A stretch of DNA of 64,000 nucleotides from an uncultured virus (IMG/VR IMGVR_UViG_3300013232_000195). Its lineage: Duplodnaviria > Heunggongvirae > Uroviricota > Caudoviricetes. Numbering within the stretch: position 1 is the first letter of the stretch; each line of letters opens with the position of its first letter. Positions 12,856-41,570 of this stretch are shown here, piece after piece. The notes below the pieces were generated by a model. It saw nothing but the letters and a program-made list of their open reading frames with translations. It was not told the DNA's origin and did not search any database. The position numbers were made by a program, and so were the translations under genes. The stretch lies in the IMG/VR virus record IMGVR_UViG_3300013232_000195; one strand, written 5' to 3'.

Positions 12856-12860
12856 CCCCT

Positions 12861-14683: not shown

Positions 14684-14700
14684 CGTACAAGCAATGTAGA

Positions 14701-14730: not shown

Positions 14731-14801
14731 GTTTTCACTGCAAGTGGCACATTCACTACGTAGTGAAGCTTGACAGAAGAGGGAGATGTGGTATTACTTT
14801 C

Positions 14802-14873: not shown

Positions 14874-14874
14874 A

Positions 14875-15351: not shown

Positions 15352-15420
15352 GCCAAAGGCCCCCCTTTCCTTTCATTATACGCGTGATATACTCAAGGTA
15401 GAAAGGAAGGGTAGCAACCG

Positions 15421-15858
15421 ATGAACAAGTCAGCCGAGTTCAAGTTGAAGCTGGCATGCGTGAGTACAGCCGCCTACGGGCTGAATGCCAGCTTGGACAT
15501 GCACGTGAGGATGTGTCCTCCCCCAGTCAGGTCTGCCATGAGAGGAGTCGTCTCGGCGCTAGGACAGAAGGGCGTGGAGATGATGTACGAACAGTCATGC
15601 AAGCTATTGAAGGCCATGGACGCGGCATTCAACAAGAAGTCAAAGATCTACGCGATGAAGGGCTTCAAGGGAGAGCCAGTGAGGGACTGGTACCTGCGAC
15701 TCAAGCTCTTTCTCATAGACTCGAACCAGATAGAAGACAAGAACATGACGGCCTGGTTCAAGACGGAGGAAGGGAAGCATACGCTTGACATGGTTCGGTT
15801 CGCCGTGTTCCACATCGCCGAGGAACTCGTCGAAGAGGCTGAGAAAAATGACGATTGA
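15421..15858 (+). CDS. Hypothetical protein
   Basis: RBS-preceded ORF heading a gene run. Confidence 0.65.
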   Translation: MNKSAEFKLKLACVSTAAYGLNASLDMHVRMCPPPVRSAMRGVVSALGQKGVEMMYEQSCKLLKAMDAAFNKKSKIYAMKGFKGEPVRDWYLRLKLFLIDSNQIEDKNMTAWFKTEEGKHTLDMVRFAVFHIAEELVEEAEKNDD

Positions 15859-16708: not shown

Positions 16709-17245
16709 GCGATTACGACGAATACCAGACGAGTCGAAACTATAACCTTGTCAATTCATGGCATGAGGGTGACCTTGCGACAGGGCAAGATGGTAACTAT
16801 ATCGAACGTTGGCCGTCCAAAATTGGTGAGCGCCGTGGTGTTTCCGTGGACGTTTTGACTTGGGTTGGGACAGATTCTGGCGCGAAGCATTTCAAGGTAA
16901 GTATCGAGGAAGTCGACAACCAGTTCTGGTCAGAGAAGAGAAACATGTGGGTCAGGGTTTTGTGTCACAACGGTTCGCGTGGACTCAGTCTGGGCGCGAA
17001 CGTGTTGTCGTCTAAGGACGCCGTGAAGCTGGCGAAGACGTACATGAAAATGATCGATCCAACAGGAAAGACTCATGTCTTCGTTTGGAAATGGACTGGA
17101 TCCGAGAGGCCACGTTGGATTAGGAGATAAAACATGACATACAGTGACAAACTCGGTTGGATTTGGTTCTTTGGTCTGCCGACTGGGCTAGCAGTGTTCG
17201 TGTTAGTCTTGTGGCTCAGCGGCAACTTACACTAAGAGGCTTCAG

Positions 17246-17665
17246 ATGAGGCTCATTCTCTGCTGCGCGATCTTCGTTCCGTGCATGGCCTGGGGGGCTT
17301 CTTGTCAGCCTTGGACGGTGAGGATCGTCTATCCGCAAACGTCCCAGCAAATTCGGTACGTGCCAAAGCCAAAGGCCAAGTACGTTCAGAAGGCTTGCTC
17401 AAGACAAGAACCAAAACAAGAGCCAAAACAAGAACCAGTTTGGGTACCACCAAGCCCATCTTCGTTCGTCTCTGGAAGCGCTGAGAAGTCCGAGTTCGAT
17501 GATTACAAGCGATGGAAGGAAGAGTACGACCAGAGCGAGCCAGTCAAGGCCAAGAAACGCAAGGAACAAACAGAAGAGGCAAGAAAGGTCATCGTGAATG
17601 CTCTCGACGGGACCCCGAGGGAGCAGCCAGTCAAGAAAGAGAAACAAGATGAAGAAGAAGAGTGA
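17246..17665 (+). CDS. Putative secreted protein with QEPK repeats
   Basis: Hydrophobic N-terminus; tandem QEPKQEPKQEP. Confidence 0.6.
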   Translation: MRLILCCAIFVPCMAWGASCQPWTVRIVYPQTSQQIRYVPKPKAKYVQKACSRQEPKQEPKQEPVWVPPSPSSFVSGSAEKSEFDDYKRWKEEYDQSEPVKAKKRKEQTEEARKVIVNALDGTPREQPVKKEKQDEEEE

Positions 17666-17892
17666 AGAGATCCTCGTCCCAGTTGAGAATGTTTTCGAGA
17701 ACGGGTTTTTCAGGAAGAAGACTGGGACATTCGTATACAAAGTCATCTCGTCTAGCTCGGCCAAGTTCCTTAACCTATCTGACCAATACGTTTACGGCGT
17801 TACGCATAACGGTAACGTGGCTTCCGTGAAGAAAGGCACGCTTGTGGTACCGATGACCGTTCTTGGATTCCTAGATGTGTATATCAGACCTC

Positions 17893-18192
17893 TCAGCTCG
17901 GTCGAGGAGGGCGAGCTTGACCCGAACGTTGATTACGACGAGGAGTGTCCCCAATAGGCCAGCGCTTCTCCTCGTAAGCTTCCACCAGTCCAACCAACCT
18001 CTCCAACTCCTCGTACTCGACCGTCTCTGGCTGGGCCTCCCATAACTCTTCAATCCGAATCAAGGCGAGTTCGTGATCCTCATCGGAGCGCAAACGCTTC
18101 TCTTTGTGAAGCATGAGCAGCTTGTTTTCTCGTGCCTTGTCAACACACTCCATGTCACAGTTGTCGTTCGGGTCCCCGCAGTGGTGTGACAC
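17893..18192 (-). CDS. HigA-antitoxin N-terminal-like protein lacking the HTH
   Basis: RSDEDHELALIRIEELW...ELERLVGLVEAYEEKRWPI. Confidence 0.55.
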   Translation of the reverse strand: MSHHCGDPNDNCDMECVDKARENKLLMLHKEKRLRSDEDHELALIRIEELWEAQPETVEYEELERLVGLVEAYEEKRWPIGDTPRRNQRSGQARPPRPS

Positions 18193-18825
18193 GTTTGTCC
18201 TCCTATGAGAACCGCGTACCGATCATGTCCGTGAATTCGATCGGACAGTCGTTGATTATGGCGATGAACTCTTTGTGGGTGTACTCGCGCCCGTACTCGT
18301 CGCGTACACATTCGAGCCATTTTCGTGTCTTTGATATACGCAGGGCTTCCTTCTTGGGCATGGCCCAAGAGAACGAGCAACAGCTCGTTACCCCTTTCTT
18401 CGTCGTGAGGCTTTTGTTAAAGCCTAGCTCTCGGCCAATGGCCCCCTCGTCGATTTCTTCGTTCGGGGGACGTTTGCCACACTTGGGACATTTCTTATGC
18501 CAAGTCACATCCCGCCGTGACCATTCGTTCTCCGCCACGGCAGAGAAGCCGTTCTTTGACAAGCCGCCTCGGCAGGCTATGAGATGCTCATGCTCTTTCT
18601 TTTTTTCTTCTTCGTTCGGGGGCAGTTTGCAGTAATGGACGTACTTCTCCCCGTCTGCGCAGAACGTTTGCTTGCAGTCCCAGCAATACCAACCAGCGGC
18701 TGACCGCTTACCAATGTGTCCGCCGCTACTGAAGTAGAAGTTCGTGCCCATGTTCTTCCTCCAGTTCCAACTATACACTTGAACGTGCCTCAAGTCAAGG
18801 TATACTGTATCCTAGGAGGCACAAA

Positions 18826-21048
18826 ATGAAGCTACTGGTTCTACTGGTCGGGGCGCAAGGGTCTGGGAAGACCACCTACTGTGAGCAATCGCTCAAGGGG
18901 TACGTCCGCGTGTCCCAAGACGACCAAGGCAAGGGTCACTTCGATGTGTTCAACGAGGCCATCAACAATGGCGCTCCGCTGGTAGTCGTTGACCGCATCA
19001 ATGCCGAACGTGCTCAGCGCGGGCGCTACCTCGTTCCCGCGAAGAAGTTGGGATACCGAACCAAGATCATCTGGTTGACGACCGAGAAGGACGAGTGTCT
19101 TAAGCGCTGCGTCAACCGCCGCAATCACCCAACGTTGGCCACGAAGGATGCCGACAAGGCAATCAACATGTTCTTCTCTCGCTTGCAAGCTCCGTCCCGC
19201 CGAGAGGCCGATGAACTTGAAGTCATCGGGCCAGCGCCGTACTACGTCAAGATCAAGGACATCCGAGAAGAGATCGGCCAGCGCAACTACTTGGTTGTGG
19301 GCGACATCCACGGCTGCTTGGACGAGTTGAAGGAACTCTTGGAGGCTTCTGGCTTTGACCCGGACGAGGACGTTTTGATCACGGTTGGAGACATCGTTGA
19401 CCGTGGGCCGAAGGTCAAGGAAACCGTGGAGTTCTTGCGTTCTCTGCCGCGCTACTACTCCGTCATGGGAAACCATGAGGAGAAGATGCTTCGTCTGTTC
19501 CGTGGGACTCCAGTGAAGGTCTCTCATGGACTCCAGACCACGATTGACTCCTTTGGCGGAAAGGTTCCGCAAGAGGTCGCGGACTGGGTTCGGACGTGGC
19601 CGCTGATCCTGCGTGTCCCAGATGGATACGTTGTTCACGGTGGGTTCGATCCTCTGAAGACCCCCGAGGAGCAAGGGAAGGCCGACTGCATCTACATGAG
19701 GTACTTCGGCGGCGAGAACTACTTCGACTCGCTTGGCGGGACGATGTGGTACAAGCTCTGGCCGTCCGACGCGCCTCGCGTCTTCTTCGGCCATGACCCG
19801 CATGCCGATGGTCCGAATTACAACAACGTCTGTCACCTTGACGGTGGCTGTGTGTTCGGTGGATACTTGAAGGGATGGTCTTCCAAGACCAAATTGGTGT
19901 ACTACGTGAACGCGAAACAGAAGTACTCGACCAGCGAGATTGAGGCCGCGCTGACCAATCCGAACGAAGAGGTCAAGCGCCGTGAGGTTCTTCTCAACGT
20001 GGGGCTGTTGCGTGGAGACCGAACCGACGACGGGGCGTTGGCCGTCTACACCTACACTGACCAGTGCGTGTTTGATCGCGCATGGGACAACATCACCCTG
20101 AACTCGCGTGGGCATGTGTTCAACATGGCTACGGGAGAATGCGTGGCTCGGCCTTTCGCCAAGTTCTTCAATCTTGGGGAGAGGGAGGACATTACCTACG
20201 AGAAACTTCCTTGGGACAAGCCGTACGAGGTCTTCGAGAAGGTTGATGGTTGGCTTGGCGTCCTCTACCGCCACCAGGGGAAGTTCTGTGTGTCTTCTCG
20301 TGGGTCCTTCCACTCTGAGGGGGCGCAATGGGCGTCTGGTTTCATCCAGACCAAGGACATGTCGTTCCTTCCAGACGACGTGACCTTGGTTTTTGAAATC
20401 ATCACGCCAGAGCAGAAAATAATCCTTGATTACAAGGGCGAGAAGACGCTCTATGTCCTCGCGGCGTTCAACCGCCACAACGGGAATGAGTACTCCCGTC
20501 AGCAAGTGGAAGAGTGGGCGAAGATGGCTGGCTTGCCAGTCGTTCCGAAGCATGACAGCCTCACGATCGAAGACTGCATGAAGATCGCGAAGGAGATGGA
20601 AGGCCGCGAGGGCTTCGTGATTCGATTCGAGGATGGACGTCGCGTCAAGGTCAAGACCGACTGGTACTGTCATATCGCCAAGATCATGGCGAACATGACC
20701 CCGATTGCCCTCTGGGAATGCATGAAGGATGGCAAGGTCCCAGACGAGCGGATGCGCGAGATCCCAGAGGAGCTTCGGGCGCTGGCGGAACAGTACAAGG
20801 CCAAGATCGAGGGGCAGTTCTCTGGACTCAAGAACCTCGTCTTGGAGCGCTTGAAGCCACTGATCGACAAGCATAAGGATAGCGGAGACCGCAAGGCATT
20901 CGCCTTGGAAGTCGCGGGAATGCCTCACATCGTTCGTCGTTGTGCGTTCCTTCTGTTGGACAAGAAGGAGGTTGACCAGGTGATCATGAACGAGATCTAC
21001 CCGAAGTCCAATAACTGGGTGGACACGTCTGGCGTCATGGAAGGATGA
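18826..21048 (+). CDS. Trifunctional RNA repair enzyme: polynucleotide kinase, calcineurin-like phosphoesterase and T4 Rnl1-like RNA ligase
   Basis: GAQGSGKTT P-loop; GDIHG/GDIVDRG/GNHE; RPFAKFFN, EKVDG, EGFVIR, KVKTDWY. Confidence 0.9.
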   Translation: MKLLVLLVGAQGSGKTTYCEQSLKGYVRVSQDDQGKGHFDVFNEAINNGAPLVVVDRINAERAQRGRYLVPAKKLGYRTKIIWLTTEKDECLKRCVNRRNHPTLATKDADKAINMFFSRLQAPSRREADELEVIGPAPYYVKIKDIREEIGQRNYLVVGDIHGCLDELKELLEASGFDPDEDVLITVGDIVDRGPKVKETVEFLRSLPRYYSVMGNHEEKMLRLFRGTPVKVSHGLQTTIDSFGGKVPQEVADWVRTWPLILRVPDGYVVHGGFDPLKTPEEQGKADCIYMRYFGGENYFDSLGGTMWYKLWPSDAPRVFFGHDPHADGPNYNNVCHLDGGCVFGGYLKGWSSKTKLVYYVNAKQKYSTSEIEAALTNPNEEVKRREVLLNVGLLRGDRTDDGALAVYTYTDQCVFDRAWDNITLNSRGHVFNMATGECVARPFAKFFNLGEREDITYEKLPWDKPYEVFEKVDGWLGVLYRHQGKFCVSSRGSFHSEGAQWASGFIQTKDMSFLPDDVTLVFEIITPEQKIILDYKGEKTLYVLAAFNRHNGNEYSRQQVEEWAKMAGLPVVPKHDSLTIEDCMKIAKEMEGREGFVIRFEDGRRVKVKTDWYCHIAKIMANMTPIALWECMKDGKVPDERMREIPEELRALAEQYKAKIEGQFSGLKNLVLERLKPLIDKHKDSGDRKAFALEVAGMPHIVRRCAFLLLDKKEVDQVIMNEIYPKSNNWVDTSGVMEG

Positions 21049-30311: not shown

Positions 30312-31961
30312 TCACTTCAGCGATAGATGCTCCATCTCCTTGCCGTCGCTGGCCAGTAGTTTGTCTCCAGCGGCCCATAAAACACCGCTCCAGTCGTCGT
30401 CAACCTCCATTGAGGCGCTCGATCCGATTCTGGCCTTGAATACTCGTGCTTTCTGGTCTCCAATCGCCATGACACAGTTCAAGGAGTCAAGCAAGGCGAA
30501 GTTGACTTCTCGTTCCGCAACGTCAGCATCTACCATCACTTGCGACTCGGATTCTGTGGCGATGACGGTGACTCGGTCATAGCGTTTTCCGTTGTATCCT
30601 ATGGCCGAGAAGACGCCCGTGGTTCCACTCGTGTTTGCCTGGAACTTGGCATCGATCACGCGGTAGCCCTTCAGCTCGGCCACGTTCAGATGCCAGCAAG
30701 TCTTCGTCTTGGGGAAGAGCATGACTTGGCAAGTCCCGAACATGTCCTGGATCGCGCATCCTTGGAAGCACTTGGTTGCCTTGGGGAGGACGTTGTAGAT
30801 GGTCATGGGATATGGCGTTCCGTTAGGCAGCAATCCCACCTCGACCAGCTTGTCCTCGTTCTTGATCAGAATCATCCCGTTAGACCAGACGAGGTCTTGC
30901 CCTACGAAGTTGGTAGTCGTGGCAGTTCCAGTCTCTCCATCGGTGACGATCAGCTTCTCGTTCTCGAGACCCAAGACGTATGGTTTCTTGACCCAAGCCA
31001 AGTGATGTCCTTTGAATGAGCCGCTAGTCGTTCTCATGCCAACCAAAGAGCTGTCCGTGAGGTAGAAGTAGGCCCCTTCTTGGAACATGAACTCTCTGAT
31101 CTCGTAAGGCAGATCGTCAAGCGTCTTCCTCTTGACCTTGCCGAGGCCCTTCTTGACCACGGGGATGAGGGTAATGATTGGAGCGATGAAATCGAATGGC
31201 GGAGCGGTTCTCTCGCCCTTCTCGAGTACTGCCGTGTACCAATCGAGGTAGGCTTGTGGGATCACTTTGAACGGCTGGCAGACTGGAGGTACCGAGACGT
31301 TCTTGTTGAGAACGCTCACGTTGTGGATCATGCGCTCGTCTACGGACTTGTAGGACGAATGCTTCCCACGGTAAGGGTGAATTCCAATGAACAACTGGAA
31401 GGAAACCACGGCGAAAGAGAACCAGTCCGTCCCCTCGCTGAAGGTCTTGCTGTGTCGGTCTCGCACGGATTCCATCAGGGCCGTGGCATGGAAACTGGGG
31501 GTCTGGTACGAGTCCACATCGATGAAGTACAACTCGCCGAACTTCTGGTCTGTCATGAAGTTCATCTCGTTCAAGTCGACGATCAGTATCTTCTTCTCGT
31601 GGCAGTGCTGAACGCCCTCTCGCATGGTCTTGACCAAGCGCATGACGTGATTGTTGGTGATGCCGTTGCGGTCACGGAAGGCCTTGGTGAAGAGTTGGCA
31701 AAGGGTATAGGTGGACGGCAAGTAGCGCATCGTGTAGCCGACGACGCGGTTTCCATCGAAGATCTGTTCCATCGGGCGAATGATGTTCGGTAAGGTGATA
31801 AGCGACAGTTCATCCATCTTCTTGCTCGGGATGGTCTTCTTCGGATCCGAGTAGATCTTGTATGCGGTCTGGCCCTTGGCATAGACGGATGCTTCGCCAC
31901 CAGAGGCGACGAAGTCCGATTTGCTCAGGCTAACCGTTCTTTTCCCCGCCGTTATCTGCAT
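30312..31961 (-). CDS. Ser/Thr protein kinase (TerY-P type) with beta-rich C-terminal domain
   Basis: GGEASVY, YKIY, VDLNEMN, IDVDS, DWFSFAVV..LFIGIHPY. Confidence 0.85.
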   Translation of the reverse strand: MQITAGKRTVSLSKSDFVASGGEASVYAKGQTAYKIYSDPKKTIPSKKMDELSLITLPNIIRPMEQIFDGNRVVGYTMRYLPSTYTLCQLFTKAFRDRNGITNNHVMRLVKTMREGVQHCHEKKILIVDLNEMNFMTDQKFGELYFIDVDSYQTPSFHATALMESVRDRHSKTFSEGTDWFSFAVVSFQLFIGIHPYRGKHSSYKSVDERMIHNVSVLNKNVSVPPVCQPFKVIPQAYLDWYTAVLEKGERTAPPFDFIAPIITLIPVVKKGLGKVKRKTLDDLPYEIREFMFQEGAYFYLTDSSLVGMRTTSGSFKGHHLAWVKKPYVLGLENEKLIVTDGETGTATTTNFVGQDLVWSNGMILIKNEDKLVEVGLLPNGTPYPMTIYNVLPKATKCFQGCAIQDMFGTCQVMLFPKTKTCWHLNVAELKGYRVIDAKFQANTSGTTGVFSAIGYNGKRYDRVTVIATESESQVMVDADVAEREVNFALLDSLNCVMAIGDQKARVFKARIGSSASMEVDDDWSGVLWAAGDKLLASDGKEMEHLSLK

Positions 31962-32844
31962 CTTCGGGGTCCTCCCATGCGATCGCGGCCAAACCAATGT
32001 CGTCGTGGTTGCTCCAGCCCTCGGCCTTGGCTTCCTTCTGGAAGCCTCTAAGCCTTCTCGAGACAAACTGCCCTTGGGTTCCCTTAAAGGCAACCAGTTT
32101 GTCGATGACGTCAGTGAGGGCCACGGAAGACTTGCTCTTCGATGTTTCCTTGGCGCTGCTCTTTAGTACGGAGCATGCCCCGTCGGTGATGGCGAATGCG
32201 ACGTCCCCAGGGGCCGCTGGCCAGAAGCACGAATACGGTCCTGGCGGGATGATGGTCAATGCGTTTTCACCCCAGCCAGACTTATACTTCACCCGATGCC
32301 TTATCTTCCCGTTTTCATTGGCGACGAACTGCCTCTTCCTGTTCTCGTCAAGCTCGTAGCTGAGGTAATACGGGCAACCGCTTGGGTAGTTGACTTCTAG
32401 AAGGTGAATTGCATCTTTTTGCTTCAGCCCGATGACACCGTCTCCAGCTATGAAAAACCCAAAGCCTTGCGCCTTCTTGTCGTGTCGTATCGCAAGGAGA
32501 GTTGCGTCAATGGCATGAGGTTCAAGACCAAGTTGTCTGGCAGAATAGCTTGCCAGCAAGGCAATGGCCTTTGAGTTCGTAGTGGTCGAGCACGACTCGA
32601 ACGGGCTGACTCCTTGCAAGACTGACTCGATGGCTGAGAGGACGAGCAAGCGAGACCCTATGTCGGTGTCTGGGGAGCCAGAGCATCCATCAGAGACGAA
32701 CGCCCATTTCTCGCAAGGCAGCGAGCCTTCTTCCCTTCCCATGGCCGTGTAGTCCATGCCAGGGATGGGCGCGTCAAGAATCCTGGCGTAGTCTTGGCAG
32801 ACCAGATGGCTCTCGCCTATGATCATTCCAGCATCGCTGCTCAT
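31930..32844 (-). CDS. PP2C-family protein phosphatase
   Basis: GESH..CQDY, VSDGCSGS, DATLL, AGDG, ITDG, HDD. Confidence 0.85.
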   Translation of the reverse strand: MSSDAGMIIGESHLVCQDYARILDAPIPGMDYTAMGREEGSLPCEKWAFVSDGCSGSPDTDIGSRLLVLSAIESVLQGVSPFESCSTTTNSKAIALLASYSARQLGLEPHAIDATLLAIRHDKKAQGFGFFIAGDGVIGLKQKDAIHLLEVNYPSGCPYYLSYELDENRKRQFVANENGKIRHRVKYKSGWGENALTIIPPGPYSCFWPAAPGDVAFAITDGACSVLKSSAKETSKSKSSVALTDVIDKLVAFKGTQGQFVSRRLRGFQKEAKAEGWSNHDDIGLAAIAWEDPEDADNGGEKNG

Positions 32845-32854
32845 GGTCCGCTCC

Positions 32855-33089
32855 TTAATGCCCGTCTCGAATGATGCCAGGCTCGTAGGCAGTTTTCAGC
32901 TTGATGACCTTGCCTATCATCCTTCTTATGGAAGCCCCTCTATGTCCCCAAATGAAAACACAGTCGTTTTCCACGAACCCGATCTTCTCTTTGAGACTCT
33001 CCTTGACCCAGCTTTCCGCCACGGCCTTGTCTGCGAATGGGCCGTAGTGCTTGGGGCCGTAGTCGTCTAGCAACTCAACGATGTACATG
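32855..33089 (-). CDS. Small hypothetical protein inside the operon
   Basis: GGAGG RBS before MYIVELL. Confidence 0.55.
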
Positions 33090-33145
33090 GCTTCCTCCGA
33101 ATGGTTGCCCATGGCCGCAAGGCCATGGGCAACCCAGATGTTCCA

Positions 33146-33883
33146 CTAGAACGTCAGCGACTTGCTCGGTCCGCCCGTCCCCAACGCGCTCGACTGGGAC
33201 GATATGCTCTTGCTGACGAACTCGGCCAGCCTCGCCAGTTTCTTGGCCGAGGCGTCCGCGACGACCACGTACTGAGTGAAGCCAGCGTCCTTGTGGAACT
33301 GGTCCAACAGATCCTTGACGTGGGAGTCGGTCACTCTGACTCCAACGAGGATCGACACCATGGACTCGAGGTTCTCGCCCTTCACGGCATCGGCAAGAGC
33401 CTGTTTGACATCCTTCTGGGATAAGGCAGAGGCGTTGTCCTCTCCGTCCGTGAGGACGATGACGATGGCGTTCACGGCGTAGTCATTCTTCACGAGCGAC
33501 TTGCCGTAGTGGTTGGTGGCCTCAATGCCGTTTGTGGCGGCATCGAACAAGGCCGTGCAACCTCCCGTCTTGAGGACGCCATCGTACTGGTCTGGGCTGC
33601 ATTCCTGAAGCAGCTTGAACCCGTGTTCCTCACGCAACGTGGTGTTGAACGTGACGAGCCGCAACATCAGGTTGTCGGCTCGGGGGGAGTACTTGCAAGC
33701 CTCTACGACGGCCTTGATGACTCCCTCCATTTCCTTCTCGAACCCCGAGACGGAGCCTGTCACGTCCACGACCATCGTGACGAGCGTGTACTCGGTCGCT
33801 TGCAAGTCGCGCAAGCGGGTGGCGGAGTAGCCGAAGTTGTCCGTGGGCAACTTCTTCTGTTCCAGATTGGCGAGGCTAGGCAT
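33146..33883 (-). CDS. von Willebrand factor A (TerY-like) protein
   Basis: VDVTGSV MIDAS, TALFDA, LTDGEDNAS. Confidence 0.88.
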   Translation of the reverse strand: MPSLANLEQKKLPTDNFGYSATRLRDLQATEYTLVTMVVDVTGSVSGFEKEMEGVIKAVVEACKYSPRADNLMLRLVTFNTTLREEHGFKLLQECSPDQYDGVLKTGGCTALFDAATNGIEATNHYGKSLVKNDYAVNAIVIVLTDGEDNASALSQKDVKQALADAVKGENLESMVSILVGVRVTDSHVKDLLDQFHKDAGFTQYVVVADASAKKLARLAEFVSKSISSQSSALGTGGPSKSLTF

Positions 33884-33917: not shown

Positions 33918-34724
33918 CTAGGTGAGGAAGTCCACGGTGTTGGAGACCTTCATTCCCTTTGCGACCATCTCGTCGCGGAACGTGGTGTACAAGCCCTCGA
34001 ACCCAGGAACTGGGCTGGTGGCATCCTCGAGGAGAACGATCTTGGCCACGAGCTTGTCGTCTTGGAACTGCTTGACGATGTCTCGTACCGTGTTGGCGAG
34101 GCAGTGTGATCCAGCCTCTCCAGCGACGGCGATGAGGTCGGCCTCCATCAGCGTCTGGACGAACTCCGCATTGATGGACGTCTTCGGATCGCTCGGGTCG
34201 GGAACCTCAGCCTGAATGGCGCTGTAGTGTTCCGTGAACGGGTTGCTGCCCTTGGCCACGAAGTCGATCGTGGACAAGTTCGTCGCGCACCAGTCGTTCA
34301 ACTCCTTGGCCAGCTCGGGGACGATGGCCGCTCCTGGCGTCCCGATCAGGCAGTGGGGAGGCCAGATGCAGAGCGGGTAGCGCTGGCCCTTCTCCAGAGC
34401 CGTGACGTAGTTCACCATCCGCTGGAAGCAGCCAGGAAGGCTCGGACTCCACACGCCGTCCTTCACGTCCTGCGCGGTGATGATCGTGAAGGGCTTCGGG
34501 TTGTTACCCTTGGTGTCCTTCCAGAAGACGGGGTGAGCGACGTCCACCATGTGGTGGGAGTCGAGGGTCACGTGGATGTCATGCAACTTCTTCTGCGTCC
34601 GCTTGACGAACGTCGAGAGCCGCTTCATGTCCGCGTCTGCGCCCTTCACGAACAGCGCCCCAGAAGGATTGCAGAAGTCCTCCTGCGGGTCGATCACAAC
34701 CAGATCCACCTTCTTGATCGCCAT
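33918..34724 (-). CDS. pncA: Nicotinamidase/isochorismatase-family cysteine hydrolase
   Basis: IDPQEDFC, DSH, WPPHC, KG, GEAGSHC catalytic set. Confidence 0.8.
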   Translation of the reverse strand: MAIKKVDLVVIDPQEDFCNPSGALFVKGADADMKRLSTFVKRTQKKLHDIHVTLDSHHMVDVAHPVFWKDTKGNNPKPFTIITAQDVKDGVWSPSLPGCFQRMVNYVTALEKGQRYPLCIWPPHCLIGTPGAAIVPELAKELNDWCATNLSTIDFVAKGSNPFTEHYSAIQAEVPDPSDPKTSINAEFVQTLMEADLIAVAGEAGSHCLANTVRDIVKQFQDDKLVAKIVLLEDATSPVPGFEGLYTTFRDEMVAKGMKVSNTVDFLT

Positions 34725-34746
34725 GGTCGTTTCTCCTTTCATGGCC

Positions 34747-34790
34747 TTAGTGTCACATCCACACCATCCTTATTGTGAATATTACACTAC
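34747..34790 (-). promoter_or_regulatory. Two tandem NrtR-type operator boxes overlapping the operon promoter
   Basis: TTAGT-GT-CACATCC-AC-ACCAT and TTATT-GT-GAATATT-AC-ACTAC (GT-N7-AC); minus-strand TTGTGA-N16-TAATAT. Confidence 0.75.
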
Positions 34791-34862
34791 ATTCCTCCGA
34801 TCACAACGTCTTTTCTGGCACTTGACGACCGAATGTGATTCAAACGGATGCGTCATCATGGG

Positions 34863-35666
34863 TTACAACTCAAAGAAAAAGCCATTTCGCTTGCTTTCCC
34901 AGAACGATTTCTGGTCGTATCTGTAAAGTGCCGCTGGGCGGTGAGCCGTTCCCTCTTGTATTTTGCACGGCTTGAGGATTCCCATGGAGAGGATCTTCTT
35001 GCGGAAGTTGCGCTTGTCGAAGTTCCTGTCAAGGACGGCCTCGTAGGCCTCTTGCAGCGTTGTCAGCGTGAACTCCTTGGGCAAGAGCTTGAAGATGACG
35101 GGCTGGTATGCCACCTTCGCCGCGAGGCGCTCAAGCGCGTAGCTGAAGATGTCGTAGTGATCGAACGCGAATGCCCCGCCACGCAAGTTGACTCGCTGGC
35201 CGTTCTCGTCCCGTTTGATCGGAATCCAGACGGCTTCTTTGGCATCGCTTCCAGCCTTGGCCTTCTGGAAAGAGGACACGTCAACGAGGGCCATGTACCC
35301 GACCGTGATGTATCGGCCACGAGGGTCTCGCTTCGGGTCTCCAAACGTGTAAAGCTGTTCCAAGTGGATGTTTTTCGGTGAGATCTGACGATGATCACCA
35401 GCGGTGATGCGAGAGTACGGGAACTTTGGTGTCTCCTCAAGGACGATCCCCGTTTCTTCCTTCAGTTCTCGCAGCGCGGTTTGTTCCAAGGTCTCGTCCA
35501 TCTGGATGTGACCGCCAGGAAACGCCCAGTGGTCGGCGAAGGGGTCCTCCTTGCGCTTGATGAGCAAGATTTGCAACTCCTTAAAGACAACGTCGTACCC
35601 GAAGATGATGACGTCGGTGGTCACGCAAGGCATCGGATAGTTGTAGGTGTAGGTCTTTTTGCCCAT
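34863..35666 (-). CDS. nrtR: NrtR Nudix/winged-helix transcriptional regulator
   Basis: PGG...ETLEQTALRELKEETG Nudix box, LEQLYTFGDPKRDPR, AFDH, LLPKEFTL, DKRNFRKKI, RPAALY. Confidence 0.92.
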   Translation of the reverse strand: MGKKTYTYNYPMPCVTTDVIIFGYDVVFKELQILLIKRKEDPFADHWAFPGGHIQMDETLEQTALRELKEETGIVLEETPKFPYSRITAGDHRQISPKNIHLEQLYTFGDPKRDPRGRYITVGYMALVDVSSFQKAKAGSDAKEAVWIPIKRDENGQRVNLRGGAFAFDHYDIFSYALERLAAKVAYQPVIFKLLPKEFTLTTLQEAYEAVLDRNFDKRNFRKKILSMGILKPCKIQEGTAHRPAALYRYDQKSFWESKRNGFFFEL

Positions 35667-35677
35667 GGATTGTCTCC

Positions 35678-35698
35678 TTAGTGTCAAGGCTACTATAT
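35678..35698 (-). promoter_or_regulatory. NrtR-type operator box upstream of nrtR (autoregulation)
   Basis: TTAGT-GT-CAAGGCT-AC-TATAT overlapping the -10 of TTGACT-N16-TAGCCT. Confidence 0.7.
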
Positions 35699-36844
35699 CT
35701 ACGGCAAAAGTCAAGGCACAAAACTTTCTTGACTTCTTGAGAAACGTGGCTATGGTTGGTGCTCAAAGGAGATCGGAATGAAAACACTAGCATTGATCGT
35801 CACGTTGTCGTTCTCTTGTCTTGGTGTCGCGGCAGAACCATTCCCGGAAGCGGCCAAGGAATACTTCATGGCTTGCCTTCGCGGGAACGGAGAGAAGGAG
35901 ACGAAGGACTTCTCGTGGCAAGTAAGCAAGCTGTACGGCTTCACGCTCAGGCAAGTTAAGACAGCCACTTGCTTCTACCAAGAGGGCAAGTCTTTCGATC
36001 AAGCGATGAACGAGGTCATAGCGTTCGAGTCCAAGAAGGGCAGGTTCTTCCGCGCCATGCTTCTTATCGCGATAGCGGGAGACTTGGGGATGGATCCAGT
36101 GGTTCCAGAGAACGTGAGGGCGTACCTCAATGCCCGCTACTGTTCTTCTTGCGGTAGTTGGTGGGTCGGACCCAGAGCCTATAATTGCTGCCGCTGCGAT
36201 GACAAGAGCGCGGGGTCTCGACGCTGTGTGTTAAAACAAGGACATCTAGGTGATCATTCCTATGATCTGATGATGGAGTTGGGTCCGATTCCAGCAATGG
36301 GTGAGATGCAGACAAGACCTTACGGACCTTGAGGAATACCATGGACTCCATAATCAGAAGCCTCTTTGAGTTGATACCAGAGCCGTTCCGTCCGTACGTG
36401 GCGTTCGGGCTTTTGGTCTTGTACATCGTTACAAAAGCCCGCAGCGCCTCCAAGAGCCAAAAGATCACCAAACTGGTTCTTGTCGTTTGCCCCAAGCCGA
36501 AGGAGGGCGAGAAAGGCCTCCTTCGTACACCCTCATGGTGGGACAAGTTGGTTGATGCCATTTTCTAAGGAGTAGCCATGGACAAGCCAAGCAAGTACTG
36601 GGTCAAGTACAACAAGTCGTGGCTTGATTTCGAGAATGACGGCCTCGCTCGGGCTGGCATGTTTGTTGAGGTCAAGGGCAACACGTACGACGCCGAGGCC
36701 GTAGAGACGTACTTGATCGGAGACGTAAACGAAAATCGCGGGGTATGCGATGATTGTACGGCCTTCCCCAAAGGGGCCATCGTGTTGAGGTACAAGCAGC
36801 TTGTCACTGACGACATGATGAGTATTTAGCACTTCTTCCGAAAA

Positions 36845-36877
36845 CGTGCTTGACCACAAGGACATGCCTAGTAGGAT
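36845..36877 (+). promoter_or_regulatory. Promoter for the paralog array and radical SAM gene
   Basis: CGTGC-TTGACC-N16-TAGGAT. Confidence 0.65.
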
Positions 36878-36896
36878 TCGCGCCAGGAGCTAGGTC

Positions 36897-37193
36897 ATGA
36901 AAAAGCGTGACGGACATGTGTCGAACAGTTCTTCCACGTCGTTCGTTCTCATGCTCTCCGCCAAGGACGATGCTTTTCTGAAGGACGAGCTTGATACTGA
37001 TGAACATGACGATAGGTTAGCCTTAGCAATGTTGCAAAGGCCAAAGTACAAGCGCGTTGGTGGAAAGCACATGGTTGTCTATAAGGAATCCGAATACTTG
37101 GGTTGTGGCGGGATTCCTTCGCTTGCCAAAGCTTTGGTAGAAAAGATTCCTGGCAAGTACATTCTGGAGATCAAAGAAGGAGGAAGTCCGTGA
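36897..37193 (+). CDS. GHVSNSSS-motif paralog 1
   Basis: MKKRDGHVSNSSSTSF. Confidence 0.85.
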   Translation: MKKRDGHVSNSSSTSFVLMLSAKDDAFLKDELDTDEHDDRLALAMLQRPKYKRVGGKHMVVYKESEYLGCGGIPSLAKALVEKIPGKYILEIKEGGSP

Positions 37194-37555
37194 AGATCCG
37201 AGAAGGTCACGTCTCCAACAGTTCGTCCTCGTCCTTCATCATCGTAATCAAAAAGAAAGACTACGAGGCCGTCTTACAAGATCTTGACGGGCTACCAAAA
37301 AAGATCGCCAAGGCGTTTGCTTGGCAAAGCCTTGGAAACAAGGATCTGATTATGGTGGCGAACTGGTCTGAAATGGATGGCAGTGACACATTGGACCATT
37401 TGGGATTTAGGGAGAAACTTGGACTAGACAGACCTGGCGAAGAGGACGATGACGAGGTAGACAACTCTTACGAGCGTTTTCATGACGCTTGGGACGAGGT
37501 TCGGGATGCGCTTGAGGAAAAGTCATCCTTGTACCTCAAAAACGAGGATAACTAA
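37190..37555 (+). CDS. GHVSNSSS-motif paralog 2
   Basis: GTG start; KIREGHVSNSSSSSF. Confidence 0.85.
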   Translation: MKIREGHVSNSSSSSFIIVIKKKDYEAVLQDLDGLPKKIAKAFAWQSLGNKDLIMVANWSEMDGSDTLDHLGFREKLGLDRPGEEDDDEVDNSYERFHDAWDEVRDALEEKSSLYLKNEDN

Positions 37556-37557
37556 CC

Positions 37558-37962
37558 ATGAAACTCCGTGATGGTCATGTCTCTAACAGCTCGTCGTCTT
37601 CATTCATTTCCGTGATGACGAAGGCCACCTTCGAGAAGGCCAAGGCGGACGCTGGAGAGTTCGCTGGCAAGTTGGCCGATCTCGTTGCACAGCATCATAG
37701 GCTCGGAAATGAGGACATCGTTCTCATTGCCGTACGGGCCTACGAGGGCAACTATTTCTACGGTGATCCACTTTTGGAGCCAACGAAGATCAAGGCTCGT
37801 GGATGTGAACACCCCATCTCGGACGCGCCGTTCTGTAACATGTGTGGCAAGGCTACATGGGTTGAGGAGAACGAATACCCAGACTGGCAAGATGCCTGGG
37901 AAAAGTTCTGCGAGAGCATCCCAAAAGGAGAGGAGTTCGGAGAACTCCAAGGAGACGAGTAA
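37558..37962 (+). CDS. GHVSNSSS-motif paralog 3, with zinc-ribbon insertion
   Basis: MKLRDGHVSNSSSSSF; CEH..FCNMCG. Confidence 0.85.
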   Translation: MKLRDGHVSNSSSSSFISVMTKATFEKAKADAGEFAGKLADLVAQHHRLGNEDIVLIAVRAYEGNYFYGDPLLEPTKIKARGCEHPISDAPFCNMCGKATWVEENEYPDWQDAWEKFCESIPKGEEFGELQGDE

Positions 37963-38246
37963 TGAAAGTACGAGAAGGCCACGTTTCAAACAGTTCGTCG
38001 TCATCGTTCGTCTTGGTCACCACCAAGGAGAACTTCGACAAGGTCTACGCCGAGGCAAGTAGCGAATCAAAGTCGTTCGCCGATGAGCAAGCAATACACA
38101 AGAAGATAGGAAGCCAGGAACTGGTTTTCTTTGCGGGCGGAGGATACGAAGGCGGTGACATTTTCGTGGGGGACGACTGGTACGAATTCAGAGAAGCCCT
38201 CTGCGAAGATGAAAAAGCCACCTACTACCACCGAGAAGACATCTGA
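37962..38246 (+). CDS. GHVSNSSS-motif paralog 4
   Basis: MKVREGHVSNSSSSSF. Confidence 0.85.
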   Translation: MKVREGHVSNSSSSSFVLVTTKENFDKVYAEASSESKSFADEQAIHKKIGSQELVFFAGGGYEGGDIFVGDDWYEFREALCEDEKATYYHREDI

Positions 38247-38259
38247 TAAGGAGACTGCC

Positions 38260-38598
38260 ATGAAGGTTCGCGACGGACATGTTTCAAACTCCAGTTCTTC
38301 CTCGTTCGTTCTGCTGACGTCAAAGGAGAACTACGAGAAAGCGGTGGCTGACGCTACTCCGTGGCAGCGAGCCGTCGCAGAGGCGATGAAGGGAGAAGAA
38401 GGCAAATTCCTTGGCATTGACGTGGTAAGCTTCTGTGGATGGAGCGATGCTGGTGGCGGGAGTTCGTTTGAGTACTTGCGCGAAGAAATCAAGTACGAAG
38501 GCGATGACGAAGAGAGCGCGTACGATGGATGGGATGCGTTCGAGAAACTCTTGAAGAGGAACAAGGACGCCATTTTTGAAGGTGGCTCGGACTGGTAG
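38260..38598 (+). CDS. GHVSNSSS-motif paralog 5
   Basis: MKVRDGHVSNSSSSSF after AAGGAG. Confidence 0.85.
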   Translation: MKVRDGHVSNSSSSSFVLLTSKENYEKAVADATPWQRAVAEAMKGEEGKFLGIDVVSFCGWSDAGGGSSFEYLREEIKYEGDDEESAYDGWDAFEKLLKRNKDAIFEGGSDW

Positions 38599-38615
38599 TA
38601 CCCAAGGAGAATACC

Positions 38616-39020
38616 ATGAAGGTTCGTGATGGACATGTCTCAAACTCCAGTTCTTCCTCGTTCGTTCTGATGACCACGAAGGAGAACTACGAGAGGGCAT
38701 TGGCCGAGGCCGATCCGTATGTCAAGGCCGTGGCAAAGGCTCTGGTGGACAAAGACGAGTCGAAGCAGACCTTCCTTGGCAGAAAGATGGTAGTCTTCTC
38801 CCACTACAGCGACTCTGGAGGGAACGGAACATTTTCCTATCTTGAGGTTAAATGCGCCCCTCCTCGAAGAGAAGACGTGCAGCATGACGAAGAGGATGAC
38901 GACTTAAACGAAGACGAGGACTACTGCGAGGAAGAAGCCAAATACCTCGCATGGCAGAAGTTCCAAGATCTTCTTAACAAGAACAAGACAGAGGTGATCT
39001 CAGCCCGTACGGGAGGCTGA
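38616..39020 (+). CDS. GHVSNSSS-motif paralog 6
   Basis: MKVRDGHVSNSSSSSF. Confidence 0.85.
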   Translation: MKVRDGHVSNSSSSSFVLMTTKENYERALAEADPYVKAVAKALVDKDESKQTFLGRKMVVFSHYSDSGGNGTFSYLEVKCAPPRREDVQHDEEDDDLNEDEDYCEEEAKYLAWQKFQDLLNKNKTEVISARTGG

Positions 39021-39050
39021 GAAGGCTAGGAATCAAGCAAGGAGCGACAA

Positions 39051-39443
39051 ATGAAGATTCGCGAAGGACATGTGAGCAACAGTTCGTCGTCATCGTTTCT
39101 CCTCGTGGTCACCGAGGACGTCTTTAAGAAGGCCCTCAAGGAGGCGTCTCCTCTGGTCAAGGACATTGTCAAGTACCTGGAACCAGAGAAGAGGAAGGTC
39201 TTTGGCAAGAAGGTCGTCGTCATCACCACTCAAGATTGTCATGGTGAAGGAACCATCTTCAACATGATACAGAATGGCGACGTGAAGGTGGATGTCCCCA
39301 AGAAGGAGGACGATGAGTCTGGTGAGTACGCAGACGACGCCGACTACATCAAGCGAGAGATCGCCGAGGAAGCCTGGAATGACTTCGTGTCCAAGCTCGA
39401 GAAGAACAAGGACGATGTCTTCACCCACACGGAGAGCTACTGA
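39051..39443 (+). CDS. GHVSNSSS-motif paralog 7
   Basis: MKIREGHVSNSSSSSF. Confidence 0.85.
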   Translation: MKIREGHVSNSSSSSFLLVVTEDVFKKALKEASPLVKDIVKYLEPEKRKVFGKKVVVITTQDCHGEGTIFNMIQNGDVKVDVPKKEDDESGEYADDADYIKREIAEEAWNDFVSKLEKNKDDVFTHTESY

Positions 39444-39647
39444 TGAACCCATCAGAGCCACGGCTGATTCTTATCGGCGATATGATCTTGAACGTGAACC
39501 ATATCGTTCGCGAAGAAGATCAGCCGTATCGCCGACGACGATCACCGCTTGTTCATAAAGATGCGTGACAGCCAATTCGACATCACCGCCAAAAGCAAAG
39601 AAGAATTGGACGTCTTCTTCTTAAGGATACTCGGAGGAAGATCATGA
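39443..39647 (+). pseudogene. Small frameshifted ORF inside the array
   Basis: MNPSEPRLILIGDMILNVNHIV continues in another frame as AKKISRIADDDHRLF...LGGRS, ending in an ATGA overlap. Confidence 0.45.
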
Positions 39648-40000
39648 AGCTCCGCGACGGTCACGTTTCGAATTCAAGTTCGTCATCCTTTGTCCTCGTG
39701 ACCACGAAGGCCAATTACGAGCGAGCGTTGAGCGAAATACAAAAAGGCGCGGAAACCAAGGACAACGCAGAATTCATCTTGGCGGTTGCCAAGAAGCTGG
39801 CACGCGAAGGCAGGCTTGGGGGCATTGACATCGTCAGCTTTTCGACGTATTCTTGTGAAGGTGAAGGAACGATCGGGCAGATGTGTGTGGACGTCGAAAG
39901 CAAAGAGGAAGACTACGGCAAGTACGAGGCGTGGGATGAGTTCAGAACCATCCTCAGAAGCAACAAGGATGACGTCTTCGTATCGTCCCATTGTACGTGA
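39644..40000 (+). CDS. GHVSNSSS-motif paralog 8
   Basis: MKLRDGHVSNSSSSSF. Confidence 0.85.
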   Translation: MKLRDGHVSNSSSSSFVLVTTKANYERALSEIQKGAETKDNAEFILAVAKKLAREGRLGGIDIVSFSTYSCEGEGTIGQMCVDVESKEEDYGKYEAWDEFRTILRSNKDDVFVSSHCT

Positions 40001-40023
40001 CAACAACCTTTGAGGGGAACACG

Positions 40024-41124
40024 ATGTCAACGCTCTACCCCGACATGAAAACGACGGATGACGTCAACAAGTTCGTCTCCGAGAATGGCGAATTTAAGGT
40101 TTTCAAGTCGCCCAGTTACAACTACGTCTACGACAAGATCAGCGGACGCTTCGCCAGGTGGGGCGAAAAAGAGGAAGACGATCCCGCCTACGGCCCAGCC
40201 CCAGAGATTGCCGACATCGAAATCTCCGTGGACGGATGCCCAGACCGCTGCCCGTTCTGCTACAAGGGAAACATGCCGTCCAAGGCCACAAACATGACCT
40301 TGGATACGTTCAAGGCCATCATCGGCAAGATGCCCACGTCGCTCACTCAAGTGGCCCTTGGAATCACGGGAATGCAAGCCAACCCAGACTTGCTTCCGAT
40401 CATGCGCCATTGCCGCAGCATGGGCATCGTACCGAACTTCACGCTGGCTGGATCAGACTTGACCAAGGAACTGGCCATCGAGAGCGCCAGGCTGGCTGGG
40501 GCCGTGGCCGTGAGCGCCCGAAAGGGAACCAAGGACCTCTGCTACGAGACGGTTCGCCTCTACAATGCCCTTGGCTTGAAGCAAGTGAACATCCACGTCA
40601 TGCTCTCGGCAGAGACGGAAGACTTCGCCAATGAGGTCATCCACGACTTCCAACATGACGAAAGACTGAAGAACCTCAACGCGGTGGTGTTCCTCGGGGT
40701 CAAGCCGAAGGGACGGGCGAAGGACAAGTTCCACCCACTCCCGCAGAGCGGATACGACAAGTTGGTGTCGTATTGCTTGGAGAATGGGATCCGCTTTGGC
40801 TTCGACTCTTGTTCGGCCTCTCGGTTCGAACGGGCCGTGGACAAGGCAGAAGTGTCAGACGCCTTCAAGAAGGCGATGAAGCTTCGTTCGGAAAGTTGCG
40901 AGAGCGACTTGTTCAGTTGCTACATCAACGTGAAGGGCGAGTTCTGGCATTGCTCGTTCTCCGAGCACGAGCCGACCTTCGCCTCGGTGGACGTGTTGAA
41001 GGCGAAGGACTTCGTTCGGGACGTCTGGTACGCCCCAGAGGTAAACGCCTTTCGAGAGCGGTCGTTGGCGGGGATCAAGGACGGATGCAGACAATGCATC
41101 GCGTTCGACGAGATCAACCATTAG
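40024..41124 (+). CDS. Radical SAM enzyme with SPASM/twitch-like C-terminus
   Basis: CPDRCPFC (CxxxCxxC); SCES..SCYINVKGEFWHCSF...C. Confidence 0.9.
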   Translation: MSTLYPDMKTTDDVNKFVSENGEFKVFKSPSYNYVYDKISGRFARWGEKEEDDPAYGPAPEIADIEISVDGCPDRCPFCYKGNMPSKATNMTLDTFKAIIGKMPTSLTQVALGITGMQANPDLLPIMRHCRSMGIVPNFTLAGSDLTKELAIESARLAGAVAVSARKGTKDLCYETVRLYNALGLKQVNIHVMLSAETEDFANEVIHDFQHDERLKNLNAVVFLGVKPKGRAKDKFHPLPQSGYDKLVSYCLENGIRFGFDSCSASRFERAVDKAEVSDAFKKAMKLRSESCESDLFSCYINVKGEFWHCSFSEHEPTFASVDVLKAKDFVRDVWYAPEVNAFRERSLAGIKDGCRQCIAFDEINH

Positions 41125-41297
41125 GAGAAGGCGGATGGCAAAGAAAAGGAAGCCCATCGACAAGCTGTCGGACTACCGAATCCTTTCAAACAAGGACGAC
41201 AGCGTGATCTCTTCGTTTAAGTCGACCAAAGAGGCCGCCGAGTCGACTCTCAAGTACTTCAAGCGGCAAGTGGATTGTCGCATGGAGAAGACATAGC

Positions 41298-41570
41298 ATG
41301 ACGCGCCGTAACTTCATGTCGGTTGCGTTGGGCTTAATTGCCATAGCAGGAGTTGCTAAGGCTGCACAAAAACAAAAGCTGAGCAAAGAGGAACGTGACG
41401 CCATACTCGCCAAGGCCTTCGAAACCAAGGAAGGCAGGATGATGCTTGTTCAAGCCATGGTACAGCCAATTCGATGCGGTGGATGGGAGTACTGCCAGAA
41501 CGACGGCGCTCTCATAAAAAACCGCCGCAAGCCATGTCCTAAGTGTGGAAGGATCATGGATAAATGCTAA
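41298..41570 (+). CDS. Tat-like signal peptide, capsid-N-arm-like segment and zinc ribbon
   Basis: MTRRNFM..AKA; ERDAILAKAFETKEGRMMLVQAMVQPIR; CPKCG. Confidence 0.55.
   Translation: MTRRNFMSVALGLIAIAGVAKAAQKQKLSKEERDAILAKAFETKEGRMMLVQAMVQPIRCGGWEYCQNDGALIKNRRKPCPKCGRIMDKC

Follow-up and report, generated by a model that had tools for sequence, protein, structure and literature searches.

An array of phage proteins with a common N-terminal tag and a linked SPASM/twitch-like radical SAM enzyme: a putative two-component modification module

Most of what is known about radical S-adenosylmethionine (SAM) maturases concerns small antibiotic-like peptides, together with a few dedicated protein substrates. 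In the systems that produce peptides that are ribosomally synthesised and then modified after translation (RiPPs), the enzyme gene lies beside ribosomally made substrates that share a recognition sequence. We analysed a stretch of 64,000 nucleotides (nt) from an uncultured Caudoviricetes virus (IMG/VR record IMGVR_UViG_3300013232_000195; this whole stretch is hereafter called the window), in which a comparable arrangement is found: eight tandem genes at 36897–40000, the products of which begin with a common 16-residue sequence (the tag), are followed by a gene for a radical SAM enzyme at 40024–41124. The model of this enzyme finds its best structural matches in SuiB of the SuiB/SuiA (streptide) system, SkfB, CteB, PqqE and ChlB. 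The present system differs from RiPP systems in its numbers, with up to 16 putative substrate genes per locus and at least 124 families of bodies, the body being the region behind the tag. A further precedent is the anaerobic sulfatase-maturating enzyme (anSME, AtsB), which belongs to the radical SAM enzymes, has auxiliary clusters and acts on Ser or Cys within a full-length protein, in the sulfatase motif C/S-x-P/A-x-R. The present tag is also Ser-rich and an anSME is among the structural neighbours of the enzyme; unlike the case of anSME, the sulfatase motif is absent from the tag, and the putative substrates are many unrelated small proteins.

We consider it fairly probable that the array and the enzyme constitute a two-component phage module, in which a SPASM/twitch maturase-type enzyme would modify the flexible 16-residue N-terminal tag of eight substrates. 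The initial annotation of this DNA had suggested one maturase acting on a diversified set of substrates through a shared N-terminal site, and this interpretation was strengthened by the co-occurrence of the genes, the maturase-like fold and the predicted flexibility of the tag. A full-text search, with subscription journals and supplements outside its reach, found no paper on the tag or on its pairing with the enzyme. Within that scope, a putative SPASM/twitch maturase of the radical SAM type that has a multitude of folded, N-terminally tagged phage proteins as its substrates would be new. One enzyme family appears to serve a portable 16-residue tag on more than 100 unrelated and uncharacterised phage protein families. 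If the tag is modified, this would be a new viral post-translational modification and a first handle on a large set of the phage genes known as “dark matter”, and it might provide a short tag, encoded genetically, by which proteins could be modified enzymatically. T4-like phages that can be grown in culture on E. coli, Klebsiella, Enterobacter or Cronobacter carry the module, as does a Vibrio phage, which opens the hypothesis to direct testing.

The tag-gene array and the conservation of the tag

The eight tag genes are all located on the plus strand, co-oriented and tightly packed. Gene calls and alignment agreed with the initial annotation, which had described eight tandem proteins of 94–134 amino acids (aa) with a near-invariant 16-residue N-terminus. 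All of them begin with MKxR[D/E]GHVSNSSS[S/T]SF, and 13 of the 16 columns are invariant in the alignment of the eight (M1, K2, R4, G6, H7, V8, S9, N10, S11, S12, S13, S15 and F16), whereas the bodies share merely 32–35% identity with copy 1. A regular-expression scan and a hidden Markov model (HMM) of the family, applied separately, each detected exactly eight copies in the 64-kb window, and neither detected a decayed copy. The junctions are operon-like, with two overlaps (GTGA at 37190 and TAATG at 37962) and gaps of 2–30 nt at most of the others.

The identity of the eight tags does not extend to their codons. When codons 2–16 were compared pairwise among the eight copies, 237 of the 420 comparisons differed synonymously and 45 non-synonymously; third-position identity was 35%, as against an amino-acid identity of 89%. 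This agrees with the earlier remark that the Ser codons mix TCN and AGY, which had placed the constraint at the protein level, and indicates that selection on the protein maintains the tag. A DNA-level repeat or gene conversion was considered as the origin of the tag identity and was rejected, because low third-position identity together with high amino-acid identity is not expected of a repeat artefact.

A profile built from the eight copies matched 1570 cluster representatives at E ≤ 0.001 and 461 at E ≤ 1e-10, among 1.84 billion proteins. These relatives are typically 105–135 aa long, and every one that was inspected starts with the tag. When all loci were pooled, 396 distinct tag proteins were obtained with a search pattern anchored on R4, N10, S11 and S12. 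At the other positions the most frequent residues were K2 (395 proteins), G6 (377), F7 (378), V8 (375), S9 (392), S13 (347), S15 (382) and F16 (380). Position 7 is aromatic (F, H or Y) in 390 of the 396 and is followed by V or I and then S. His-7 occurs in eight of these proteins, all from the window, and also in several metagenomic relatives of the window; given this limited distribution, the window carries a rare His variant of a Phe tag.

The regions behind the tag fell into 124 body clusters (382 distinct tag proteins), and on this clustering the tag is a portable module carried by at least 124 unrelated bodies. None of 134 tag-protein representatives had a Pfam hit at E ≤ 1e-4, and no family for the tag proteins was found in Pfam, NCBIfam or PADLOC. 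In PHROG, all eight matched phrog_7397 (E 0.001–0.1) over positions 1–24 only, except for one that aligned to position 88; phrog_7397 and phrog_7293, the family matched by the enzyme, are both listed as “unknown function”. A DNA search of region 36500–41300 against GenBank phages gave no match. Copy 6, compared with phages by tblastn, was also without a match; low-complexity filtering had probably masked its Ser run.

Tag proteins range in size from 90 to 320 aa. Copy 5 (38260–38598, 112 aa) was modelled with AlphaFold2 from a 144-row alignment as a confident globular alpha/beta domain, with a mean predicted local distance difference test (pLDDT) value of 87.9. Residues 1–12 were modelled as coil, and the mean pLDDT of residues 1–10 was 50; the tag is accordingly predicted to be flexible. 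Foldseek searches with the body returned nothing at E ≤ 0.001 in PDB or BFVD, and VIA-align over 48,161 chains returned only generic ferredoxin-like or helical rows with a best Z of 4.7, which is not proof of a new fold. In the ESM Atlas, the body matched unnamed viral clusters only (scores 0.88–0.89).

A conserved Asn-Ser and a Ser-Ser run at a flexible N-terminus could also point to self-processing, the alternative offered in the initial annotation: the tag would be cleaved by an N-to-O acyl shift at a Ser, leaving Ser or a pyruvoyl group at the new N-terminus with no part for the enzyme. Pyruvoyl enzymes do cleave at X-Ser. Since the self-cleaving sites of known cases are built by the fold, however, the 124 unrelated bodies could not share one such active site, and self-processing would also leave the linkage with the enzyme, described below, unexplained. 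We regard it as extremely improbable.

The individual copies differ in several respects. Copy 1 (36897–37193, 98 aa, MKKRDGHVSNSSSTSF...) has a short body, truncated before the C-terminal W-x-x-F helix of the other copies, and the family HMM matched only its N-terminal two thirds (E 1.5e-14). Its isoelectric point (pI) of 7.8 is an exception to the earlier description of the bodies as divergent and acidic, which held for the seven others (pI 4.5–5.0). Copy 2 (37190–37555, 121 aa, E 7e-30) has a GTG start that overlaps the stop codon of copy 1 and an AGGAGG sequence upstream. Copy 3 (37558–37962, 134 aa) contains a CxH...CxxC insert, which recurs in a metagenomic relative (P0015); the initial annotation had called it a zinc ribbon, and although the Cys/His insert is real, no Pfam zinc-ribbon model matched it. 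Copy 4 (37962–38246, 94 aa) has 1 nt of its start in common with the stop codon of copy 3. Copy 6 (38616–39020, 134 aa) matched the family HMM with an E of 1.3e-40, and copies 7 (39051–39443, 130 aa) and 8 (39644–40000, 118 aa) were recognised by gene call, alignment and family HMM.

A sigma-70-like promoter candidate on the plus strand, TTGACC-16-TAGGAT (36850–36877), lies in the 67-nt gap before copy 1 and matches nine of 12 consensus positions. The array had been described as having one promoter; the site is present, but neither its singleness nor its significance was supported, as the region contains five promoter-like sites compared with 3.0 ± 1.8 in shuffled sequences. Because this count does not exceed that of the shuffles, the site is a candidate only. 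A second candidate (39577–39606) is located in the 200-nt gap before copy 8 (39443–39643, plus strand). The gap also contains a 41-codon open reading frame (ORF; 39443–39568), whose start codon overlaps the stop of copy 7 (ATGA) and which is in the frame of copy 8 with one stop codon between them, and has no family match. A decayed tag gene was looked for in this gap and none was found.

Linkage of tag genes and the enzyme gene

The initial annotation had stated that a lack of co-occurrence of the two components across genomes would speak against it. Co-occurrence was found from both sides, in cultured phages and in bacterial operons. Starting from the enzyme, 65 of 80 IMG/VR loci contained 1–13 ORFs with the strict motif within 10 kb. 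The tag genes were nearly all on the strand of the enzyme gene, and the array often began 14–300 bp from it. After grouping of the enzymes at 90% identity, tag genes were present nearby in 57 of 70 groups (median, four genes). The enzymes of the linked loci, the bacterial ones included, are only 28–56% identical to that of the window.

The 13 groups without strict-motif neighbours were mostly accounted for by distance or by sequence variation. A T4-like group had its tag genes about 20 kb away and another group about 50 kb away; two had variant tags outside the strict pattern, and four had tag genes elsewhere in the record. The remaining five, in which there was no tag gene, are fragments of 3–31% estimated completeness. 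When ten enzyme records that lacked a strict-motif neighbour were searched over their whole length, tag genes were present in five, including all three that were at least 90% complete; one of the latter (L079) has variant tags within the 10-kb flank.

From the opposite side, the tag pattern matched 533 stretches in a collection given as 2.9 million contigs. The enzyme was present in 15 of the 22 fetched loci that contained the tag family, with arrays of up to 16 tag genes. Five tag records without a neighbouring enzyme gene were searched whole; the enzyme was found only in the one that was at least 90% complete, about 50 kb away. When the 2761 ORFs of the 80 loci were clustered, the enzyme was the sole universal family. 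Unlike in RiPP systems, no protease or exporter was linked, and no other third partner recurred: besides the tag proteins, no other family was present in more than eight of the 80 loci.

Among cultured phages, Klebsiella phage PMBT1 encodes the enzyme (45% identity) and, about 20 kb away, two MKIRSGFVSNSSSSSF proteins. Of the GenBank phage records, 173 contained the enzyme and 175 a tag protein; the host genera of the two sets coincide (Klebsiella, Enterobacter, Cronobacter, Citrobacter and Escherichia), and RB43 and RB16 are included. As these T4-like records (the Slopekvirus/RB43/RB16 group) form one clade, we counted them as one case. Vibrio phage D479, in which five tag genes lie 2–10 kb upstream of the enzyme gene, provides a second cultured case.

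The tag could instead be a sorting or targeting signal, for example for packaging into the capsid and injection, or a signal for stability or degradation, with the enzyme merely co-regulated. T4 internal proteins, which are suspected of an anti-defence role, share an N-terminal capsid-targeting sequence; like the tag proteins of large phages, they are tandem, rapidly diversifying small phage proteins with only a short N-terminus in common, and in the T4-like phages the tag genes are not beside the enzyme gene. A capsid-targeting signal needs no radical SAM enzyme, however, whereas the tag described here is tied to a single enzyme family at the level of whole genomes, across the identity range given above and with both parts present in all near-complete genomes tested. 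Unlike the T4 signal, it is also found in operons of bacteria, where each genome has a single tag gene and no capsid is involved. A cleavage motif of the prohead-protease type was not seen, although no search was aimed at one. We consider a sorting or stability signal quite improbable.

In one relative, a 194-kb record (L005), a tag-family gene directly upstream of the enzyme gene (9078–9365) has suffered an internal deletion, which removed the tag and shifted the frame: the gene reads MKIRQG, is then out of frame, and has an intact body that begins at 9129. Immediately upstream of the gene there is a tRNA-like sequence (about 8990–9065).

The radical SAM enzyme and its proposed action on the tag

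The enzyme gene (40024–41124, plus strand) encodes a 366-aa radical SAM protein with a Cys-rich, SPASM/twitch-like C-terminal part and matches phrog_7293 with an E of 5.5e-85. Its likely start is the ATG at 40024, preceded by GAGGGG 6 nt upstream, rather than the TTG at 39991; the phrog_7293 match spans residues 26–372 of the 377-aa translation from TTG. The CxxxCxxC enzyme noted earlier behind the array was confirmed: the motif reads CPDRCPFC in the window (C72, C76 and C79), and these Cys residues are invariant among 77 aligned relatives. In the C-terminal part, C263, C292, C310, C355 and C358 are conserved in the same relatives.

Although the window enzyme falls short of the Pfam and NCBIfam thresholds, as detailed below, two relatives exceed that of Radical_SAM (PF04055), L005 with 41.0 bits and L111 with 51.8 bits, and a bacterial homologue scores 26.9 against a cut-off of 27 for TIGR04085. 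The faint best hits in NCBIfam are to the peptide maturases WgkB, StsB, PqqE and MftC; far below the cut-offs, WgkB has an E of 4e-4, HxsC was matched by a bacterial homologue only (E 3.6e-5), and a KxxxW maturase by bacterial homologues (E 4e-9). Unlike the RiPP maturases listed above, the enzyme is part of a phage-encoded system and reaches no curated family cut-off.

The AlphaFold2 model of the enzyme (pLDDT 95.5) has a partial TIM-barrel radical SAM fold, with a Z of 17–25 to many solved radical SAM enzymes. The closest structures are SuiB (Z 24.9; root-mean-square deviation 3.4 over 313 aligned residues, model residues 20–366), SkfB (22.2) and CteB (19.5), followed by anSMEcpe (19.3, 274 aligned), PqqE (18.9) and ChlB (18.5, tied with many); pyruvate formate-lyase (PFL) activase is a more distant neighbour (13.2). 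The alignments with SuiB, SkfB and anSME include the C-terminal part, up to residue 366. In the model, therefore, the fold of the enzyme is nearest to those of peptide- and protein-modifying SPASM/twitch radical SAM enzymes.

The presence of an activase among these neighbours bears on another possibility, namely that the tag proteins carry a protein radical, with the enzyme as activase and a glycyl radical at Gly6 of R-x-G-[F/H]-V. PFL activase acts on an R-V-S-G-Y loop, and small autonomous glycyl-radical proteins would be a further analogy. In the tag, R4 (an anchor of the search) and G6 are near-invariant, an aromatic residue follows the Gly, and models of NrdG-type activases gave faint hits to the enzymes (E 0.005–0.12). 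The spacing from Arg to Gly is nevertheless unlike the glycyl-radical fingerprint R-V-x-G-[Y/F], and position 6 is Ser in nine and Thr in eight of the 396 tag proteins (17 in all). The tag, moreover, is N-terminal and predicted to be flexible rather than a buried loop, and the enzyme has a Cys-rich C-terminal part, whereas activases are small and lack a SPASM part; SPASM/twitch maturases also match the model better (Z 19–25) than the activase does (Z 13). A glycyl-radical function appears very unlikely.

In the mechanism that we propose, the enzyme would dock on the tag M-K-x-R-x-G-[H/F]-V-S-N-S-S-S-S-S-F, the 5′-deoxyadenosyl radical would abstract hydrogen from a tag residue, and a post-translational change would be installed in each tag protein; that the tag is modified is suggested by the linkage and the fold. 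Our best guess at the chemistry is an intramolecular crosslink from the aromatic residue to a C-beta within [H/F]7-V8-S9, with a mass change of −2 Da; Ser oxidation, as by anSME, or epimerisation, as by EpeE, would be alternatives. The [F/H/Y]-V-S of the tag is an aromatic-X-X triplet like those of triceptide (three-residue cyclophane) systems. Passages of PMC11499958 describe triceptide synthases that crosslink aromatic-X-X motifs with any aromatic residue, His included, one of which (HtkB) accepts a His-to-Phe exchange; the tag likewise has F or H at this position. According to PMC10114670, enzymes of the FxsB type make cyclophanes, and SuiB, the top structural neighbour, makes a Lys-Trp crosslink, which the title of its structure entry also states. 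NCBIfam also lists a “His-Xaa-Ser system radical SAM maturase” model. The bodies, fast-diversifying and mostly acidic, would act on host targets early in infection, with the tag chemistry as their common property; it is guesswork from their small size, acidity, rapid divergence and multiple copies among early-type small genes that suggests host-directed effectors.

The complex prediction suggested in the initial annotation was carried out with the enzyme and copy 5. The score was 0.42 (runs, 0.42, 0.42 and 0.49), compared with 0.01 for the best of three controls; agreement of contacts between the runs was at least 62%, and the partner had a pLDDT of 60 or more. Of 157 solved complexes, 116 reached the mark applied to such scores, as did two of 215 mismatched pairs; only 18 of the 157 solved complexes, but both passing mismatches, fell in the band up to 0.60. 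These counts are made rough by our use of our own alignments and by riding ligands. The prediction thus lies above its controls and lends weak support to a contact.

Such a contact would also be expected if the tag were a docking handle only, and the tagged proteins were adaptors or regulators that bring the enzyme to host proteins, nucleic acid or a small molecule, where the chemistry would take place. Linkage shows a partnership and not which molecule is modified, the complex prediction concerns contact alone, and 124 body clusters would suit target-specific adaptors. On the other hand, the nearest structural relatives modify the peptide that they bind (SuiB with SuiA, CteB, and anSME with a sulfatase peptide), ten consecutive near-invariant residues including the Ser run exceed the usual need of a docking strand, and only one tag protein accompanies the enzyme in the bacterial operons. 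We therefore consider a pure docking function unlikely and favour modification of the tag itself.

Several observations weigh against modification of the tag by a SPASM-type maturase. The putative substrates are folded proteins of 90–320 aa and not short leader/core peptides, and their conserved part is the extreme N-terminus (the first 16 residues), with a whole domain as the variable part, unlike RiPP precursors. The window enzyme scores 21.5 bits with Radical_SAM (gathering cut-off, 29.5) and 16.5 bits with the Pfam SPASM model (cut-off, 21.5), and the best NCBIfam hits of the enzymes (18–20 bits, against cut-offs of 380–650) reach no curated maturase family. The canonical SPASM pattern has seven Cys, and this pattern is not evident in the enzyme, in which about five C-terminal Cys are conserved. 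For the crosslink in particular, the enzyme joins no cyclophane-maker family at cut-off, and Leu or Met at position 7 in six of the 396 tags does not fit an obligatory aromatic crosslink. The tag genes and the enzyme gene are 20–50 kb apart in the T4-like phages and in several complete genomes, so that adjacency is not obligatory. When longer proteins were searched, two tag proteins of greater length came up but no tag–enzyme fusion, which is weak evidence. Finally, the complex score lies in a weak band in which a pass is “more often wrong than right” unless the pairing was likely beforehand.

The enzymes of the His-7 clade (the window and P0165–P0167 and P0169) uniformly differ from at least 85% of the other 72 by F36Y, L63A, F112L, F123L and M126I. 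Co-variation of enzyme and tag at position 7 was considered on this basis and rejected as evidence, because the five substitutions belong to a single lineage and represent one event. In another locus (L020), the enzyme gene is present in two pieces, at 3–440 and 1431–1934, about 1 kb apart, and it is likewise in two pieces in Cronobacter phage vB_CsaM_leB; these split genes suggest the insertion of an intron or a homing endonuclease. Endonuclease-like genes adjoin the enzyme gene in L005 and in Vibrio phage D479.

Bacterial operons and neighbouring genes in the window

A scan of one genome per prokaryote species gave 141 matches to the tag pattern, of which 15 loci were kept, all from metagenome-assembled genomes (MAGs). 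Five of these MAGs, labelled Acidobacteriota/Terriglobales or Verrucomicrobiota, share a translationally coupled four-gene operon (about 6750–11500 in L110, L111, L112 and L115; 2–2878 in L117). The first gene encodes a protein of about 950 aa with SMEK_N (E 1e-29 to 1e-31) and a NACHT nucleoside triphosphatase (NTPase) domain, Avs2-like in PADLOC (E about 1e-23). The second encodes a protein of about 128 aa with no assigned family, the third a protein of about 137 aa that begins with MKIRxGFVSNSSSTSF, and the fourth a radical SAM/SPASM enzyme with 28–30% identity to that of the window. The tag occurs once per genome in the five MAGs, and in L111 the operon is located between integrase genes on a 1.47-Mb contig. 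This type of enzyme was present in two of 401 sampled genomes of the phylum, the query genome counted. As an independent context with a single candidate substrate, the operon strengthens the reading of enzyme and substrate.

The Avs2/NACHT-like neighbour places the pair in an immunity-type setting, and from its gene content the operon resembles a defence-type system, hitherto undescribed, with the tag/enzyme pair among its components, suggesting a role in immunity or counter-immunity. There is a parallel in PMC7159879, parts of which describe FxSxx peptides and a radical SAM-SPASM enzyme beside STAND ATPases in bacterial conflict systems; its authors predict there that the crosslinked FxSxx peptide acts as a toxin or signal. 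Unlike the tag, which is N-terminal and has no linked peptidase, the FxSxx motif lies at the C-terminus, and a metallopeptidase releases it. The FxsB model, furthermore, is not among the NCBIfam hits listed for the enzymes, and HxsC appears there only with the hit of a bacterial homologue given above, far below its cut-off. More speculatively, tag and enzyme might be a post-translational “currency” of phage–host conflict: in bacteria, a single matured tag protein and an Avs2/NACHT-like nuclease-NTPase would together form part of an immune switch, which large phages, with an enzyme of their own and arrays of up to 16 matured proteins on more than 100 bodies, would jam, mimic or exploit. The modification would be a new radical crosslink or a different radical edit, made on folded proteins and not on peptides. 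We think this scenario unlikely.

Directly upstream of the array, on the minus strand (33918–35714), an isochorismatase/nicotinamidase-like gene lies beside a gene with Nudix and NrtR winged-helix parts; the two could be a phage pair related to nicotinamide adenine dinucleotide (NAD). A cluster of genes for a Ser/Thr protein kinase-like, a PP2C phosphatase-like and a von Willebrand factor A (vWA)-domain protein is located at 30312–33883, also on the minus strand. It is conceivable that the Ser-rich tags are targets of this neighbouring kinase, with nothing linking the two. A set of genes for nucleic-acid repair and metabolism extends over 7468–21048. It comprises an ATP-dependent DNA ligase (7468–8697), a gene similar to guanosine monophosphate reductase/inosine monophosphate dehydrogenase (11788–12795, minus strand), a Ro60-type vWA protein (13049–14683), and a 740-aa protein (18826–21048) in which a kinase-like AAA_33 domain is fused with a metallophosphatase and a T4-type RNA ligase.

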